DNA from: Escherichia coli
GTDB taxonomy: Bacteria; Pseudomonadota; Gammaproteobacteria; Enterobacterales; Enterobacteriaceae
Assembly: GCF_013315695.1 (NCBI RefSeq)
Contig: NZ_CP054353.1
Length of the DNA: 64,000 nt
Strand: one strand, 5' to 3'
Shown: piece by piece, positions 7,376 through 62,160 of the stretch
Layout: the number at the start of each line of letters is the position of its first letter
Position numbering within the stretch: the first letter of the stretch is position 1
Translations under genes and position numbers: made by a program
Notes under the pieces: model-generated
Told to the model about the DNA's origin: nothing
Database searches by the model: none
Seen by the model: the letters and a program-made list of their open reading frames with translations, nothing else

Positions 7376-8608
7376 ATGCAAAATAAATTAGCTTCCGGTG
7401 CCAGGCTTGGACGTCAGGCGTTACTTTTCCCTCTCTGTCTGGTGCTTTACGAATTTTCAACCTATATCGGCAACGATATGATTCAACCCGGTATGTTGGC
7501 CGTGGTGGAACAATATCAGGCGGGCATTGATTGGGTTCCTACTTCGATGACCGCGTATCTGGCGGGCGGGATGTTTTTACAATGGCTCCTGGGGCCGCTG
7601 TCGGATCGTATTGGTCGCCGTCCGGTGATGCTGGCGGGAGTGGTGTGGTTTATCGTCACCTGTCTGGCAATATTACTGGCGCAAAACATTGAACAATTCA
7701 CCCTGTTGCGCTTCTTGCAGGGCATAAGCCTCTGTTTCATTGGCGCTGTGGGATACGCCGCAATTCAGGAATCCTTCGAAGAGGCGGTTTGTATCAAGAT
7801 CACCGCGCTGATGGCGAACGTGGCGCTGATTGCTCCGCTACTTGGTCCGCTGGTGGGCGCGGCGTGGATCCATGTGCTGCCCTGGGAGGGGATGTTTGTC
7901 TTGTTTGCCGCATTGGCAGCGATCTCCTTTTTCGGTCTGCAACGAGCCATGCCTGAAACCGCCACGCGTATAGGCGAGAAACTGTCGCTGAAAGAACTCG
8001 GTCGTGACTATAAGCTGGTGCTGAAGAACGGTCGCTTTGTGGCGGGGGCGCTGGCGCTGGGATTCGTTAGCCTGCCATTGCTGGCGTGGATCGCCCAGTC
8101 GCCGATTATCATCATTACCGGCGAGCAGTTGAGCAGCTATGAATATGGTTTGCTGCAAGTGCCTATTTTCGGGGCGTTAATTGCGGGTAACTTGCTGTTA
8201 GCGCGTCTGACCTCGCGCCGCACCGTACGTTCGCTGATTATTATGGGCGGCTGGCCGATTATGATTGGTCTGTTGGTCGCTGCTGCGGCAACGGTTATCT
8301 CATCGCATGCGTATTTATGGATGACCGCCGGGTTAAGTCTTTATGCTTTCGGTATTGGTCTGGCGAATGCGGGACTGGTGCGATTAACCCTGTTTGCCAG
8401 CGATATGAGTAAAGGTACGGTTTCTGCGGCGATGGGGATGTTGCAAATGCTGATCTTTACCGTCGGTATTGAAATCAGCAAACATGCCTGGCTGAACGGG
8501 GGCAACGGACTGTTTAATCTCTTCAACCTTGTCAACGGCATTTTGTGGCTGTTGCTGATGGTTATCTTTTTAAAAGATAAACAGATGGGAAATTCGCACG
8601 AAGGGTAA
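7376..8608 (+). CDS. mdfA: Multidrug efflux MFS transporter MdfA (Cmr)
   Basis: 410-aa product from internal ATG ([14 protein letters not shown]...); 12-TMS MFS protein. Confidence 0.92.
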
Positions 8609-8640
8609 AAAAATGCCTGATTGCTTTGTGCGATCAGGCA
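8607..8640 (-). terminator. Bidirectional intrinsic terminator between mdfA and ybjH
   Basis: Hairpin gcctgat...atcaggc flanked by an A7 run on the top strand, giving a T7 tail on the minus-strand transcript. Confidence 0.5.
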
Positions 8641-8648
8641 TTCTCAAA

Positions 8649-8933
8649 TTAATGGTGATGGTCGTCAATCTGGTGTTCGATAACCATCCCTTCACCTACG
8701 CTGGCAAGATGGCGAACATAAGGATGCGGGCGGTAAGCCGGAGCTGGCGCAGGAGCCACATAGACGGTTTGCGGCACAGTCGCGACGCTGACCGCTTGTG
8801 GAACGCTGACTGAATCAGGAACCACAACCACTTTGTATCCACTCGGCACATCGACGGTGACACTTTGCGCCATCGCCACACCAGTAAAGCCCATTAAAAG
8901 CGCGCCCAACAGTAGACAATTTTTCATAATCAT
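8649..8933 (-). CDS. ybjH: Small secreted protein YbjH
   Basis: 94-aa ORF with signal peptide; position matches K-12 ybjH. Confidence 0.8.
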   Translation of the reverse strand: MIMKNCLLLGALLMGFTGVAMAQSVTVDVPSGYKVVVVPDSVSVPQAVSVATVPQTVYVAPAPAPAYRPHPYVRHLASVGEGMVIEHQIDDHHH

Positions 8934-11662: not shown

Positions 11663-11681
11663 TAGATAAATTTTAGGCAAC

Positions 11682-11760
11682 AAAAAACCCACCAACCTTG
11701 AACCGAAATGGCGGGGTTGATGGGCTCCACAAAATGGGGACATCAAAGAAAAGCAGTGGC
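11682..11760 (-). ncRNA. rybB: Sigma-E-dependent small RNA RybB
   Basis: Reverse complement reads gccactgcttttctttgatgtccccattttgtggagcccatcaaccccgccatttcggttcaaggttggtgggtttttt, matching recalled RybB including the terminator hairpin and T6 tail; located between rcdA and ybjL as in K-12. Confidence 0.85.
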
Positions 11761-40073: not shown

Positions 40074-40973
40074 TTACGCGGAAAAAAAGGCGATGAGGAT
40101 CGGCACTAACAGGCTGAGAATAAAACCGTGAACAATCGCCGCCGGGACCATATCCAGCCCGCCAGTACGTTGAAGAACGGGCAGGGTGAAATCCATCGAC
40201 GTCGCACCGCATAAGCCCAGTGCAGTAGAGCGGCTACGGCGAATCAGCCCAGGGATTAACATAATAGCAATCAGCTCACGGGCCAGATCATTAAAAAACG
40301 CCGCGCTCCCGATTACTGGACCAAAAGATTCGGTCAATAAAATACCGGAAAGAGAATACCAGCCGAAACCGGAGGCCATTGCCAGCGCGGTATTGATGGG
40401 AAGATCAAGAATAAAGGCGTTAATTAAACCACCAATTAATGAACTGGCAACCACCACCACGGCGACAATCATTCCCCGGCGATTAAGGACAATCTGCTTT
40501 AAGGTCATGCCATTATTGCGCAACTGAATACCGACGAGGAAAAGTAGCAGAATTAAGGTGTATTCACTGGCTTTGGTCGCGTGTTGTAAGAAAGCCAGTC
40601 CACTCAGACCAATGGCAAAACCAATCACTACTACGCCGCACAGTTTTAGCGACTCCAGTGCCATCGCAATACGCGACGGGAGTTTTTCTTGATGATGGTG
40701 GTTGCGCCATGGCAGGCCGCGCTCCAGCCACAACAACGCAATAATATTGCAGAGTAAAATAATGGTAATGCTGACGGAGGAATAATGCAGAATCGCCAAC
40801 AGGTTACTGGCGAGGTTATCGAGAAACGCCAGACTGATACCCATAAAAAAGAGAATGAGGTAAACCATCCAACTTAATAGCTGATTAATAACTCTTAATG
40901 CAGCTTTTTGGCGAAGCGGAATGAGGTAACCCACAATCAGGGGAACCAGAATGATTAACAGCCCAGAAAACAT
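40074..40973 (-). CDS. lysO: Lysine exporter LysO (YbjE)
   Basis: 299-aa product from internal ATG (MFSGLLIILVPLIVGYL...); multi-TMS; last K-12-collinear gene before the IS. Confidence 0.88.
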   Translation of the reverse strand: MFSGLLIILVPLIVGYLIPLRQKAALRVINQLLSWMVYLILFFMGISLAFLDNLASNLLAILHYSSVSITIILLCNIIALLWLERGLPWRNHHHQEKLPSRIAMALESLKLCGVVVIGFAIGLSGLAFLQHATKASEYTLILLLFLVGIQLRNNGMTLKQIVLNRRGMIVAVVVVASSLIGGLINAFILDLPINTALAMASGFGWYSLSGILLTESFGPVIGSAAFFNDLARELIAIMLIPGLIRRSRSTALGLCGATSMDFTLPVLQRTGGLDMVPAAIVHGFILSLLVPILIAFFSA

Positions 40974-41312
40974 GAAAACCCAGTCCTTGCAAAGATGAAG
41001 TCGAAATGCGCGATGACACACTACTGAAAGCGGAAGGACGAGTAAAGTTGCAATTAAAAGGAAATGTTATGCAAAAGGAGCAGTAGAGTATTCGTTTTCA
41101 TTTAAAGATGTTCTTGCGCTTTAATTACAAACCGCACCGGTGTTGGTGGCGTCAAAATCGCTGAAGCGTTCCCCGAAGGCCGGGGCAGCCCACATGGATG
41201 TGGGCTGAGGGCGCGTCTTACAAGGATAATGAGATGGACGCTCCAGATTTTACGGTATCAAAGTACCAGACTGGATCGTTGCAATACGTCCTGAAAAATT
41301 AGGGGCGTCCAC

Positions 41313-42338
41313 ATGAAAGTATCAACTCTTGGTATCGACCTGGCAAAGAACGTTTTTCAGCTTCATGGTGTCGATCATGAAGGCCATACTATTTTGCGTA
41401 AAAAGCTCACCCGGGCTAAGTTTGTTCAGTTTGTGATTCAACTGGAACCTTGTCTGATTGGCATGGAAGCCTGCTCATCCAGTCATTATTTTGCGCGATT
41501 ATTCACCCGCTATGGTCATGAGGTAAAACTCATACCTCCGCAGTATGTGAAGCCTTATGTGAAAACGAACAAGACGGATGCAGCAGATGCTGAAGCAATC
41601 TGCGAAGCGGTAACCCGTCCGAATATGCGTTTTGTTCAGATAAAAACCGAAGAGCAGCAGGCCGTTTTAGCGTTACACACTGAACGGGGAATACTTATCC
41701 GTGAGCGGATTGCCTGTGCCAATAGTTTAAGAGCCACACTTGCTGAGTTTGGTATTACGATTGCGGCCGGACAAAGCCATTTAACACGTGAGCTGCCAGC
41801 CATTCTGGAGGATGGCGAAAATGGTTTATCTCCCTTTGTCAGAACCAGCATCTACAGACAGTCTAAACATATCCGGGAACTTGAAGAACAAGTTAAACAG
41901 GTAGAAGAAGCTCTGGCCTCCTGGTATAGAACGCAGGAAGCCTGCCAGAGAATGGCCAAGATCCCGGGGGTTGGCATGCTAACGGCCACTTATGTGGTAG
42001 CAGCAGTGGGTAATGCCCGACAATTCAGTACCGCAAAGCAGTTCGCTTCATGGCTGGGGCTGACACCAAAGGAACATTCCAGCGGCGGGAAACAGCAACT
42101 GGGAGGGATCAGCAAACGTGGAGATGGATATTTCCGATACCTGCTGGTTCACGGCGCACGCGCACTTACCGCCTGGGTCAACCGAAACGGCGCGGTTGAG
42201 GAGAATTCCTGGCTTCAGGGACTCCTTGAGCGGAAGCACTACAATGTAGCTGTTGTCGCCATGGCGGCAAAAACAGCGAGGATCATGTGGTCAATGTTGT
42301 CACACAATACTGAATATCAACCTCGGCAGCTCGCCTGA
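41313..42338 (+). CDS. IS110-family transposase/recombinase (RuvC-like DEDD N-domain plus C-terminal Tnp domain)
   Basis: 341-aa ORF starting MKVSTLGIDLAKNVFQLHGVD with conserved acidic residues (GIDLAKN, GMEACSS); typical IS110/IS1111 recombinase length and architecture; agggg SD upstream. Confidence 0.85.
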   Translation: MKVSTLGIDLAKNVFQLHGVDHEGHTILRKKLTRAKFVQFVIQLEPCLIGMEACSSSHYFARLFTRYGHEVKLIPPQYVKPYVKTNKTDAADAEAICEAVTRPNMRFVQIKTEEQQAVLALHTERGILIRERIACANSLRATLAEFGITIAAGQSHLTRELPAILEDGENGLSPFVRTSIYRQSKHIRELEEQVKQVEEALASWYRTQEACQRMAKIPGVGMLTATYVVAAVGNARQFSTAKQFASWLGLTPKEHSSGGKQQLGGISKRGDGYFRYLLVHGARALTAWVNRNGAVEENSWLQGLLERKHYNVAVVAMAAKTARIMWSMLSHNTEYQPRQLA

Positions 42339-42384
42339 CACAAGGTCAGTCAATCTGACGAGGTGCTGAAAAAAAGTTAACGTC

Positions 42385-42565
42385 CTGGTAGGTGCAGGTG
42401 ACTTCAGAAGATGGCAAAACAGGTAAGACCGCAGGCAGGATACACCGAGAGGTAACAAGGGCAAGTTAGCCCGTAGAGGATGATTGGTACCTGCCTGGCG
42501 GATTTCATCATGGTTCGGGATAAAAATCCCATCAGAAACCGGATATATGGCTGCACCTACCCGTT
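42385..42565 (+). ncRNA. Candidate structured RNA in IS110 right flank (possible bridge/guide RNA); strand and ends unverified
   Basis: Perfect 10-bp inverted repeat gtaggtgcag (42388-42397) / ctgcacctac (42551-42560) enclosing a nested ccgcaggcagg (42429-42439) / cctgcctggcgg (42490-42501) pair and a ggga-taaaaa-tccc hairpin; no convincing coding potential. Confidence 0.2.
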
Positions 42566-42839
42566 TTATTACATAACTGAAGAAAGCATTGCATTCCGGG
42601 AGCGTCCATATATGTTACCTCGCGCCCGACCCGGTAGCCGTAAGGGATAAGCCGAGGGCACCGCGCAGCGGCGATTTTGTTCGCCAGAGCCCGGGGGTGC
42701 AGGGGGCGGCGGCGATTGGCCGCCCCCTGCGCGCTCCTTGCGCCAGTGATTATATGAAGCAATGCACATGACAGGAGCGCAACAGGATGAGAGACTGAAC
42801 TATTCTCGTTATTTTCGGACCTGATGACATTAATTAATT

Positions 42840-42923
42840 TTAAAATATCATCTTAAATACGCCAGTCACCACCAGTAGCCCAATCAGGAAAATAATCAAT
42901 ACAGCCCAGAGTATAATTTTCAT
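42840..42923 (-). CDS. yohP: Small membrane protein YohP (27 aa)
   Basis: Manual translation MKIILWAVLIIFLIGLLVVTGVFKMIF; below the ORF-track length cutoff; adjacent to mdtQ as in K-12. Confidence 0.8.
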   Translation of the reverse strand: MKIILWAVLIIFLIGLLVVTGVFKMIF

Positions 42924-43146
42924 TGGCGTTCCTTTATTTGTGAGTGCTGAATAAGTATAGGAAAAAACGAAGCCCTTTGCCGCTATTCATAAACGATTAA
43001 GATAAATCGGAAGATATCATTCGCTTAGTGTATATTTTTCTGGATATGTCGTTTTATTGCCACTGATGTATTGCCACGCGAAACTAAAAAATATATCGCA
43101 ACACACGGTAATCTCCGCGCACCTTTTCTTACCTGATTATTCCCCC

Positions 43147-44583
43147 ATGAATCGTGATTCTTTTTATCCAGCCATCGCCTGTTTTCCGCTGTTACTGATG
43201 CTAGCCGGGTGTGCGCCTATGCATGAAACCCGCCAGGCGTTAAGCCAGCAAACACCCGCGGCACAAGTTGACACCGCATTACCCACGGCGCTGAAAAATG
43301 GTTGGCCAGACAGCCAATGGTGGCTGGAGTATCACGATAATCAACTCACCTCATTAATTAATAACGCACTACAGAACGCACCGGATATGCAGGTGGCTGA
43401 ACAGCGCATTCAGCTGGCTGAAGCCCAGGCGAAGGCAGTTGCCACTCAGGATGGTCCACAGCTCGACTTTTCTGCGGATATGGAGCGGCAAAAAATGTCG
43501 GCAGAAGGGTTAATGGGGCCGTTTGCTTTGAACGATCCTGCCGCAGGTACGACCGGTCCGTGGTACACCAACGATACTTTTGGCTTAACGGCGGGCTGGC
43601 ATCTCGATATCTGGGGAAAGACTCGGGCGGAGGTTACTGCTCGCCTCGGTACGGTTAAAGCACGGGCGGCGGAACGCGAGCAAACCCGCCAATTGCTGGC
43701 TGGCAGCGTAGCCCGCCTGTACTGGGAGTGGCAAACCCAGGCGGCGTTAAACACGGTCTTACAGCAAATCGAAAAAGAGCAGAACACCATTATCGCCACC
43801 GATCGCCAGCTATATCAGAACGGGATTACTTCTGCAGTTGAAGGTGTGGAAACCGATATTAATGCCAGCAAAACCCGGCAGCAGCTCAACGATGTCGCGG
43901 GGAAAATGAAAATTATTGAGGCACGGTTAAGTGCGCTCACCAACCACCAGACAAAGTCATTGAAGCTTAAACCGGTCGCGTTGCCGAAAGTGGCAAGTCA
44001 GCTTCCTGATGAACTCGGGTACTCCTTACTGGCCCGGCGGGCAGATTTGCAGGCGGCGCACTGGTACGTTGAGTCATCGTTAAGCACTATTGATGCGGCA
44101 AAAGCGGCATTTTATCCTGACATCAACCTGATGGCCTTTCTGCAACAGGATGCGTTGCACTTAAGCGATCTGTTCCGTCATTCCGCGCAGCAAATGGGCG
44201 TTACGGCAGGCCTGACGCTACCCATTTTCGATAGTGGTCGTCTTAACGCCAATCTCGATATCGCAAAAGCCGAAAGCAACTTGTCTATCGCCAGCTACAA
44301 CAAAGCGGTGGTTGAAGCGGTAAATGACGTGGCGCGGGCGGCCAGCCAGGTTCAGACACTGGCGGAGAAAAACCAGCATCAGGCGCAAATTGAGCACGAT
44401 GCCTTGCGTGTGGTAGGTCTTGCGCAGGCGCGCTTTAACGCGGGCATCATTGCTGGTTCCCGCGTCAGCGAAGCCAGAATCCCCGCGCTGCGTGAGCGGG
44501 CCAATGGCCTGTTATTGCAAGGGCAGTGGCTGGATGCCTCCATTCAACTCACCGGTGCGCTGGGCGGGGGTTACAAACGCTGA
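43147..44583 (+). CDS. mdtQ: Outer-membrane efflux lipoprotein (NodT/OMF family) MdtQ (YohG), apparently intact
   Basis: 478-aa product from internal ATG (MNRDSFYPAIACFPLLLMLAGCAP..., lipobox LAGC); uninterrupted reading frame, unlike the K-12 pseudogene. Confidence 0.85.
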   Translation: MNRDSFYPAIACFPLLLMLAGCAPMHETRQALSQQTPAAQVDTALPTALKNGWPDSQWWLEYHDNQLTSLINNALQNAPDMQVAEQRIQLAEAQAKAVATQDGPQLDFSADMERQKMSAEGLMGPFALNDPAAGTTGPWYTNDTFGLTAGWHLDIWGKTRAEVTARLGTVKARAAEREQTRQLLAGSVARLYWEWQTQAALNTVLQQIEKEQNTIIATDRQLYQNGITSAVEGVETDINASKTRQQLNDVAGKMKIIEARLSALTNHQTKSLKLKPVALPKVASQLPDELGYSLLARRADLQAAHWYVESSLSTIDAAKAAFYPDINLMAFLQQDALHLSDLFRHSAQQMGVTAGLTLPIFDSGRLNANLDIAKAESNLSIASYNKAVVEAVNDVARAASQVQTLAEKNQHQAQIEHDALRVVGLAQARFNAGIIAGSRVSEARIPALRERANGLLLQGQWLDASIQLTGALGGGYKR

Positions 44584-46852: not shown

Positions 46853-47025
46853 AAAGTTCTTTTGCGCTGCATTGCTGGCGTAAATGTCAGCAATGCAGCA
46901 TTTCCTCACGATTCTTCTTTGACGATCGCACTTTTTGCTCGTTATGATGGCGTCGCTAGCCTCAGTAAATCCTTACTCCGGCGGTGCGCAACCCGTGCGC
47001 GTGAACCACTATCTGAATGCTCATC

Positions 47026-61543: not shown

Positions 61544-62139
61544 TTGCGTAACTCCGATAAATCGTTAAAACGTTCCATAAACATCCCGTAGGCATGACCC
61601 GGTGCCAGTGGAATCACGTTGAACATCTCTGTTGCCGGGATGCCTTCCAGTACTGGCCAGAAAGAGCCATCATCAAGCCCGAGATCGCGGCGTTCGGTTG
61701 CCAGCATGATGAGATCGGCATATTTCACAGGCGTGCGCATAACCGGGGGTAACCCGTATTTCTCACGGATTACGGCGTCTATTTTTTCTTCCATCCGTTT
61801 ATAGTCAGGAAGAAGGCGTTTCAGTGGAGCGGGAATATCCTGGCAATACGCTTCTGTTGCATCATGCATTAACGCTTCAAAAGCAAATTCCTGCGGCACC
61901 AGCTGGCTGCAAAGCACCGCATGCTGGGCGACACTGTAGAAGTGTGAAAGATGTCCTGCAAAGCGACAGATATTTGAAAGGGAAACCGCGATATCGTTAA
62001 TCACGATGTCGTCTTTATTTATCTTGTCATAATAAAAATGCTTCCCGGAAAAAGTTTTAATAAATGACATTTCGTTCTCCACTTTATATGCGCTGCACCG
62101 CTCTGAATTTTGATTGCAGCAATCCAGCCCATTTGACAT
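61534..62139 (-). CDS. HD-domain phosphohydrolase (YfbR-like 5'-deoxynucleotidase family)
   Basis: 201-aa ORF with H...HD metal-binding signature (..AGHLSHFYSVAQHAVL...LMHDATEAY..). Confidence 0.55.
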   Translation of the reverse strand: MSNGLDCCNQNSERCSAYKVENEMSFIKTFSGKHFYYDKINKDDIVINDIAVSLSNICRFAGHLSHFYSVAQHAVLCSQLVPQEFAFEALMHDATEAYCQDIPAPLKRLLPDYKRMEEKIDAVIREKYGLPPVMRTPVKYADLIMLATERRDLGLDDGSFWPVLEGIPATEMFNVIPLAPGHAYGMFMERFNDLSELRKCA

Positions 62140-62160
62140 GGGATGATTGCTGCAATTTTT

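Follow-up and report, generated by a model that had tools for sequence, protein, structure and literature searches.

A GC-rich palindromic module beside an IS110-family element in Escherichia coli is the right part of the host repeat RRS-dusC/TRIP1c

Here we show that a GC-rich palindromic module located between an IS110-family insertion sequence (IS) and yohP, in a 64,000-nucleotide stretch of Escherichia coli DNA (hereafter the window), is the right part of a known host repeat, TRIP1c or RRS-dusC, which natively lies between dusC and yohP. The best overall explanation, in which we have high confidence, is that a gap-forming host repeat has been split by a putatively RNA-guided IS. The original prediction had offered two readings of the module, as the distal end of the IS or as a host repeat that served as the insertion target; the first proved wrong and the second right. 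The module itself was already known as RRS-dusC/TRIP1c and is explained by published work. We establish here its identity in the window, its conservation, the limits of the IS, the covariation of the fold and the fixed point of insertion. The residual interest lies in the relationship between the IS and the repeat, an IS-flanked inversion, the covariation evidence and a resemblance to the TwoAYGGAY RNA motif.

Identity of the module

The repeat family was described as TRIP1, with subtypes TRIP1a–e (Rudd 1999; Li et al. 2024, Genes 15:236, PMC10888264). TRIP1a–e are the RRS element under its older name: the family was renamed RRS, for Replication Risk Sequence, by Pham et al. (2023, NAR 51:5527, PMC10287960), and later papers have followed (Pham et al. 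2024, NAR 52:6392, PMC11194060; Kusi-Appauh et al. 2026, bioRxiv 10.64898/2026.06.16.732529). The K-12 RefSeq annotation has no repeat feature in the yohP–dusC or lysO–aqpZ intergenic regions, and the family was identified from this literature.

Positions 42612–42799 are 100% identical to the dusC–yohP intergenic DNA of IS-free K-12-like strains. Against K-12 RRS-dusC itself, 180 of 180 positions are identical over 42612–42791, and homology to TRIP1 fades at about 42791. The block is thus present unchanged in the yohP–dusC region of IS-free genomes and belongs to a known repeat family, the outcome that the original prediction had named as its own refutation. Related sequence is found in 5,425 of 5,426 complete E. 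coli genomes. The search for other copies returned a second, nearly identical K-12 copy between lysO and aqpZ, oriented as described for TRIP1a/RRS-lysO, and a shortened copy (truncated TRIP1b) downstream of putP that keeps the 12-bp hairpin described below.

The 222-bp RRS unit is present in the window as two pieces. The right part (about 137 bp, of the RRS-dusC/TRIP1c type; 42612–42748, + strand) contains the 3′ arm of hairpin 2, the 3′ strand of the outer stem, the G-quadruplex motif and the GC hairpin. The last TRIP1 helix (consensus helix 14; 42733–42778, + strand) pairs GCTCCT at 42733–42738 with AGGAGC at 42773–42778. The left part (85 bp; 41143–41227, + strand) supplies the 5′ strand of the outer stem, hairpin 1 with its loop ACATGGATGT, and the 5′ arm and loop of hairpin 2 as far as ...ACAAGGAT. 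It is identical at 84 of 84 positions to the left half of a flip-type RRS-dusC (L007) and 94% identical to K-12 RRS-lysO, and genomes that lack the IS have the two parts joined. Instead of an uninterrupted unit, the locus has 85 bp and 137 bp separated by a 1,384-bp IS; the membership of both pieces in RRS/TRIP1 is nonetheless sure.

The pieces also have the intergenic position expected beside lysO or dusC. On the left lies lysO (ybjE; 40074–40973, − strand, from the annotated start of the 299-residue protein; the list of open reading frames has a longer, GTG-initiated frame with its end at 41021), the native neighbour of the other RRS copy. On the right lies yohP (42840–42923, − strand), the native right-hand neighbour of RRS-dusC, with mdtQ and yohF. 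The window thus shares with the published RRS-dusC and RRS-lysO (Pham 2023, 2024; Kusi-Appauh 2026) the identity of the right part, the G-quadruplex motif, the lysO and yohP neighbours and, by replichore geometry, placement on the lagging-strand template, but differs from them in that the 222-bp unit is broken after 85 bp by the 1,384-bp IS and is a hybrid at an inversion junction, with the left half being another allele beside lysO and the right half the dusC/yohP allele.

Outside the five loci of Li et al. (2024), we found a diverged RRS/TRIP1-like subfamily between yegH and asmA, about 73% identical in the right part. Both GGA hairpins and the covarying G-run hairpin are kept in this subfamily, and the IS uses the same insertion point there (L031, 2380–2470 and 3854–4040; also L010, L013, L018, L022 and L026). 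In Escherichia whittamii (L022, about 8600–8690), an RRS-like copy carries an internal insertion of about 75 nt with an extra GGA-loop hairpin (ggcccagggatgggcc).

Limits of the insertion sequence

The IS (41228–42611, + strand) is 1,384 bp long and encodes a transposase of 341 amino acids (41313–42338; Pfam DEDD_Tnp_IS110 and Transposase_20), followed by a 3′ non-coding region (42339–42611, + strand). Perfect 11-bp subterminal inverted repeats lie at 41234–41244 and 42599–42609; together with the long 3′ non-coding region, they place the element in the IS1111 group. In a plasmid copy, whose flanks are unrelated, the match to the window is confined to the stretch from ...AATGAGATGG to ...CCATATATGTTACCTC, with divergence immediately afterwards; in IS-free E. 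coli, the flanks of the window are contiguous (...ACAGGGAT GTTACCTCGCG...). These two comparisons define the IS as 41228–42611, with an AT core dinucleotide on either side (41226–41227 and 42612–42613). The IS is present in 179 of the 5,426 complete E. coli genomes, which have 337 places between them and a median of two each.

These limits bear directly on the reading of the module as the distal end of the IS, either a second RNA domain or a recombination site. The module does adjoin the 3′ non-coding region of the IS, and the first 37 nt of the interval originally singled out (42575–42790) are IS DNA: 42575–42611 (+ strand) is the right end of the element with its subterminal inverted repeat GGAGCGTCCAT (42599–42609), and is the only IS DNA in that interval. 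However, the plasmid copy has no module, which therefore does not travel with the IS in all copies; left and right flanks are joined in empty sites; and the module is unchanged in IS-free genomes, with related sequence in 5,425 genomes as against 179 that have the IS. We accordingly give this reading practically no weight. Annotations should place the end of the IS at 42611 and name the GC block RRS/TRIP1c rather than IS or REP.

The GC hairpin and its surroundings

Direct reading and an inverted-repeat listing both returned the perfect 12-bp inverted repeat that had drawn attention to the module: GCAGGGGGCGGC at 42699–42710 and GCCGCCCCCTGC at 42719–42730, separated by an 8-nt spacer. The resulting hairpin (42699–42730, assigned to no strand) has the loop GGCGATTG, and its 5′ arm overlaps the G-quadruplex motif. 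In first-order Markov simulations of 64 kb, 0.07 perfect inverted repeats of at least 12 bp with a 3–20-nt loop are expected, and the window has three; the 12-bp stem is far beyond chance. Folded as single-stranded DNA, the hairpin is equally stable on the two strands (−22.8 and −22.7 kcal/mol). The surrounding block is as GC-rich as had been described (70.5% G+C over 42612–42749).

A stable GC hairpin between convergent genes might be a transcription terminator, or an mRNA-stabilizing 3′ hairpin, for dusC or yohP. However, direct reading of 42575–42790 shows no T tract after the stem on either strand, as had been stated, a terminator scan of two intact RRS elements yielded zero terminator-like sites, and the hairpin also occurs at unrelated loci (lysO–aqpZ, putP–efeU and yegH–asmA), in both orientations. 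A function of this kind is very improbable, and the host-repeat reading is retained.

Three further features of the interval were considered and set aside. The module had been judged unlike canonical REP, and identity with REP or BIME was rejected: the REP-derived Rfam models naRNA4 and ES036 have no match in 40900–43100, while they do match true REPs in other loci. The 7-bp inverted pair said to bracket the block (gcattgc, 42586–42592; gcaatgc, 42759–42765) exists at those positions, but the meaning attached to it did not survive: at least one such pair arises in 79% of simulated regions of matched size and composition, its left arm is IS DNA and its right arm host DNA, and the pair is absent from IS-free genomes. 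The overlapping open reading frames at 42532–42771, already suspected to be artefacts, were rejected as genes, as they span the IS/host junction and K-12 has no annotated coding sequence between yohP and dusC.

Covariation of the fold

A pattern scan of one genome per species gave 19 matches on 18 DNA stretches, from Escherichia species, two Pseudocitrobacter species and one metagenome-assembled genome, and from no other source. The covariation alignment comprised 21 distinct copies from Escherichia and Pseudocitrobacter. Its consensus fold has 71 pairs, 13 of them with compensatory changes, of which four are in the helix of the GC hairpin and three in helix 14 (42733–42738/42773–42778). Given this structure, 98.2% of cells are paired, compared with 40–49% when partners are slid by 1–3 columns, and the covariation score was reached by 0 of 500 shuffles. 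The arms of the hairpin vary in concert (GGGGGCGGC/GCCGCCCCC versus GGGGGAGGA/TCCTCCCCC, and CCAGGGTGG/CCACCCTGG in the diverged subfamily), while the loop GGCGATTG is nearly invariant, with one substitution among the 21 copies.

Two points follow from the pattern of changes. G·U pairs outnumber A·C mismatches in the alignment by 98 to 9, which identifies the G-quadruplex strand as the folding strand. This excess fits single-stranded DNA of the lagging-strand template as well as it fits RNA, and covariation cannot tell the folding of single-stranded DNA from that of an RNA transcript. In addition, the C-rich arm, which would be needless for a G-quadruplex alone, covaries with its partner; the GC hairpin itself thus appears to be under selection, a point apparently not made in the published TRIP1/RRS work. 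Covariation therefore shows selection on the whole fold of the G-quadruplex strand, the C-rich hairpin arm included.

G-quadruplex motif and replication gaps

The published RRS G-quadruplex motif GGGGGTGCAGGGGGCGGCGG (Pham et al. 2024, PMC11194060) is found exactly at 42693–42712 (+ strand), where it overlaps the 5′ arm of the hairpin. It has one match in the whole window and none in 100 shuffles. Gap formation and its strand dependence are taken here from the literature rather than from the strain of the window. In the published work, two 222-bp RRS lie 650 kb either side of dif with the G-quadruplex strand as the lagging-strand template, and at RRS the replisome leaves post-replication gaps that can reach 2 kb and carry RecA and SSB (PMC10287960, PMC11194060). 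Pol I, II and IV are blocked in vitro by the G-quadruplex strand, blocking by its complement is less efficient, and in single-molecule assays a gap forms at nearly every encounter with RRS; the proposed role is that of a topological relief valve flanking the Ter domain (published RRS work). Very few bacterial sequences have been shown to programme post-replication gaps, and the RRS core is among them. The pilE G-quadruplex of Neisseria gonorrhoeae, cited in the RRS papers as the only other bacterial example, is likewise a G-quadruplex-forming sequence that triggers gap formation, but is unrelated in sequence and context, and its role is in antigenic variation rather than chromosome topology.

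In IAI39, the + strand of the window corresponds to the + strand at 0.90 Mb, which lies in the right replichore; the cumulative GC skew of the window is positive. From this geometry, the G-quadruplex strand would be the lagging-strand template, as in K-12, and the native orientation to replication would be kept. The proposed sequence of events is then as follows. The G-quadruplex strand, once exposed as lagging-strand template, would fold and block DNA polymerases, and up to 2 kb of template would be left behind the replisome as a post-replication gap that carries SSB and RecA. An IS1111-type, putatively RNA-guided element entered the hairpin-2 loop of the RRS, at a point some 80 bp upstream of the G-quadruplex motif; the repeat was thereby cut into pieces of 85 and 137 bp, with the module left beside the IS. 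We infer that the piece bearing the G-quadruplex still works when split.

The hairpin may account for part of the published behaviour. A perfect hairpin folds equally on both strands, which fits the weaker block by the complementary strand; for the same reason, the hairpin alone cannot explain the strand-specific block.

In many genomes (O157:H7-like and others), RRS-dusC is reversed with respect to its neighbours yohP and dusC; its flanks differ in sequence, and its hairpin allele has two compensatory changes (L007, 2401–2696; also L008 and L030). The G-quadruplex strand of such copies would sit on the leading-strand template, and this opposite orientation does not fit a strict orientation requirement.

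Resemblance to the TwoAYGGAY motif

The orphan motif TwoAYGGAY (Rfam RF01731; Weinberg 2010) is a candidate RNA found in gut metagenomes, Clostridiales and gamma-proteobacteria, and has been proposed to bind CsrA (PMC4333381). Like RRS, it has two adjacent hairpins with AYGGAY loops inside a long outer stem, but it is annotated as RNA, whereas RRS has been characterized at the DNA level. Intact RRS matches the full model at 30.9 bits (E = 0.007 in a 551-nt search), and the other copies score 29–30 bits (29.1–30.9 bits over all copies); all are below the gathering score of 43, so that these are full-length but sub-threshold matches and RRS falls outside TwoAYGGAY as Rfam delimits it. The Rfam scan of the IS-split region (40900–43100) returned only chance matches of microRNA and snoRNA type and no TwoAYGGAY, as the IS splits the element. 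The GC/G-quadruplex module lies 3′ of the TwoAYGGAY model and outside it.

In Pseudocitrobacter faecalis (L012, 2165–2395, + strand), a divergent element lies beside RRS in inverted orientation and, at 49.2 bits, exceeds the gathering score. Its outer stem is RRS-like, and a G-rich 12-bp hairpin with a G-run follows downstream. In E. coli, the search for this TwoAYGGAY-type paralogue gave one partial match only.

Together, these matches suggest that RRS and TwoAYGGAY are part of one wider family; we treat the relationship as a lead, and the resemblance is apparently unreported. If the kinship is true, either RRS-like replication elements extend to gut Clostridia or RRS has an RNA role.

On a stronger version of this reading, RRS/TRIP1 would primarily be a structured non-coding RNA, a relative of TwoAYGGAY that possibly binds CsrA, with the DNA effect secondary; it would be compatible with the DNA model. 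The full-model matches of intact copies, the paralogue that exceeds the gathering score while sharing the outer stem and G-run hairpin, and the covariation with its strong bias of G·U over A·C all point this way, as do the hairpin loops ACAUGGAUGU and ACAGGGAUGU, which resemble the CsrA site proposed for TwoAYGGAY (PMC4333381). However, every RRS copy scores under the Rfam gathering threshold, the GC hairpin lies outside the model, and G·T wobble in folded single-stranded DNA gives the same strand bias. Scans of two intact copies found no consensus promoter upstream of the element and no terminator (one promoter-like site was present at the far end, in L002), and the orientation relative to neighbouring genes is inconsistent. 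Published direct experiments, moreover, show function at the DNA level. Given the missing upstream promoter and terminator and the variable orientation, an RNA role is a minority reading, and we consider it unlikely that RNA is the primary form; the DNA-level, gap-forming element remains the preferred interpretation.

Targeting of RRS by the IS

Every genome with the full-length IS (175 of 175) has a copy inside TRIP1/RRS. The insertion point is identical in three RRS subtypes or loci, the order being ...ACA(G/A)GGAT, the IS and then GTTACCTCGCG. The three contexts are that of the window, the RRS-dusC of flip orientation and the diverged, RRS-like yegH–asmA copy.

The IS 3′ non-coding region folds into a stem with an internal loop (z = −2.9), and a predicted target-binding loop of the seekRNA/bridge type lies at 42431–42499 (+ strand; from the inverted-repeat listing and the fold). 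The 5′ side of this loop, GAGGUAACA (42449–42457), is complementary to the right target flank TGTTACCTC (42613–42621), and the 3′ side, AGGAUG (42477–42482), has the same sense as the left flank plus core. The arrangement is that of the IS1111 seekRNA architecture (Siddiquee et al. 2024, PMC11187229). The RNA from the IS 3′ region is therefore likely to guide targeting to RRS hairpin 2, as judged from the modelled fold and flank matches, and the IS probably adjoins the module through such targeting. The combination of a fixed insertion point in RRS with a guide-like 3′ non-coding region matching it is apparently unreported, and the target and end sequences of this IS were not found in the seekRNA paper (PMC11187229) or its supplements.

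Comparable IS110-family elements are IS621 in REP (Choi 2003), IS4321/IS5075 in the inverted repeats of Tn21 (Partridge & Hall 2003) and ISEc11 with its seekRNA (Siddiquee 2024). The element described here resembles them in its DEDD transposase, its subterminal inverted repeats, its 3′ non-coding region with guide-like flank matches, and its use of a host-repeat target at a fixed point and in one orientation. It differs from IS621, IS4321/IS5075 and ISEc11 in that its target is the loop of RRS hairpin 2 (ACAGGGAT to the left of the insertion point, GTTACCTC to the right) rather than REP or the end of a transposon.

A frameshifted copy of the IS, the one with unrelated flanks, is found on plasmid NZ_CP076707.1 (L003, 2730–4070). 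Its flanks, CCGGAAT on the left and GTTACCTC on the right, mimic the RRS target: the site is not an RRS but shares GGAAT followed by GTTACCTC. From the aligned flanks, this site would fit recognition that spans about 9 nt of the right flank and about 5 nt of the left.

The lysO/dusC inversion

The order of genes in the window, with lysO to the left of the split repeat and yohP, mdtQ and yohF to its right, marks the junction of a lysO/dusC inversion. Li et al. (2024, PMC10888264) reported a TRIP1a/1c inversion junction in SMS-3-5 and IAI39, and their ybjE(lysO)–yohG(mdtQ) arrangement is exactly that of the window. The lysO–IS–yohP junction is common to 132 genomes. The reciprocal junction (dusC, left part of RRS, IS, right part of RRS, aqpZ) was predicted and then found in 97 genomes, SMS-3-5 among them, with the IS on the opposite strand; without the IS, the dusC–RRS–aqpZ junction is found in one genome only.

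Both ends of the approximately 1.3-Mb lysO/dusC inversion thus carry the same IS, in inverted orientation (41228–42611 in the window; NC_010498.1, 2313395–2315580). Neither Li 2024 nor Pham 2024 mentions an IS at the junctions, and its presence at both ends is apparently unreported. Li et al. (2024, PMC10888264) attributed the rearrangements to the TRIP1 repeats. The homology offered by two inverted 1.38-kb IS copies is longer than that of the 0.27-kb repeats, and by replication geometry an RRS-triggered gap would run from the G-quadruplex motif over the adjacent IS. On these two grounds, it is plausible that the IS copies are the substrates for the inversion.

The alignments do not place the crossover: the left part matches the flip-type allele at 84 of 84 positions and K-12 RRS-lysO at 94%, whereas the right part matches K-12 RRS-dusC at 180 of 180. 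As far as alignment tells, the statement that each half is native to its flank would be true for three of the four halves only.

A joint reading of these observations can be proposed, although we consider it less likely than not. It holds that the IS would be an RNA-guided element specialized for RRS, that both Ter-flanking RRS would be split in about 100 genomes, that the inversion would be gap-driven and that RRS would be kin to TwoAYGGAY. RecA-loaded, single-stranded inverted IS copies may then drive a recurrent, terminus-symmetric 1.3-Mb inversion, and some strains would, from place counts, be without an intact TRIP1 copy. If it is true, such strains would test in nature the claim that a cell needs at least one RRS, and would point to the G-quadruplex/hairpin piece as the minimal functional RRS. 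For specialists, the point of interest would be natural isolates in which both RRS copies are split by a site-specific, putatively RNA-guided IS.

In terms of place counts, some IS-bearing genomes have only two TRIP1-related places, both split by the IS (NZ_CP066806.1, strain TCM3e1; NZ_CP159652.1, strain Z226-1). Separately, 42 of the 5,425 genomes have no place that covers at least 80% of intact TRIP1c.

Other features of the window

The only Rfam matches at gathering score in the window are the RybB small RNA (11679–11757, − strand) and the Peptidase-S11 RNA motif (46941–47021, + strand). The other perfect 12-bp inverted repeats lie at 46866–46899, just upstream of the Peptidase-S11 motif, and at 62113–62156. 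Beside the RRS locus, mdtQ (43148–44583, + strand) is an apparently intact open reading frame, whereas the K-12 gene is a pseudogene and that of IAI39 is interrupted by an internal stop.
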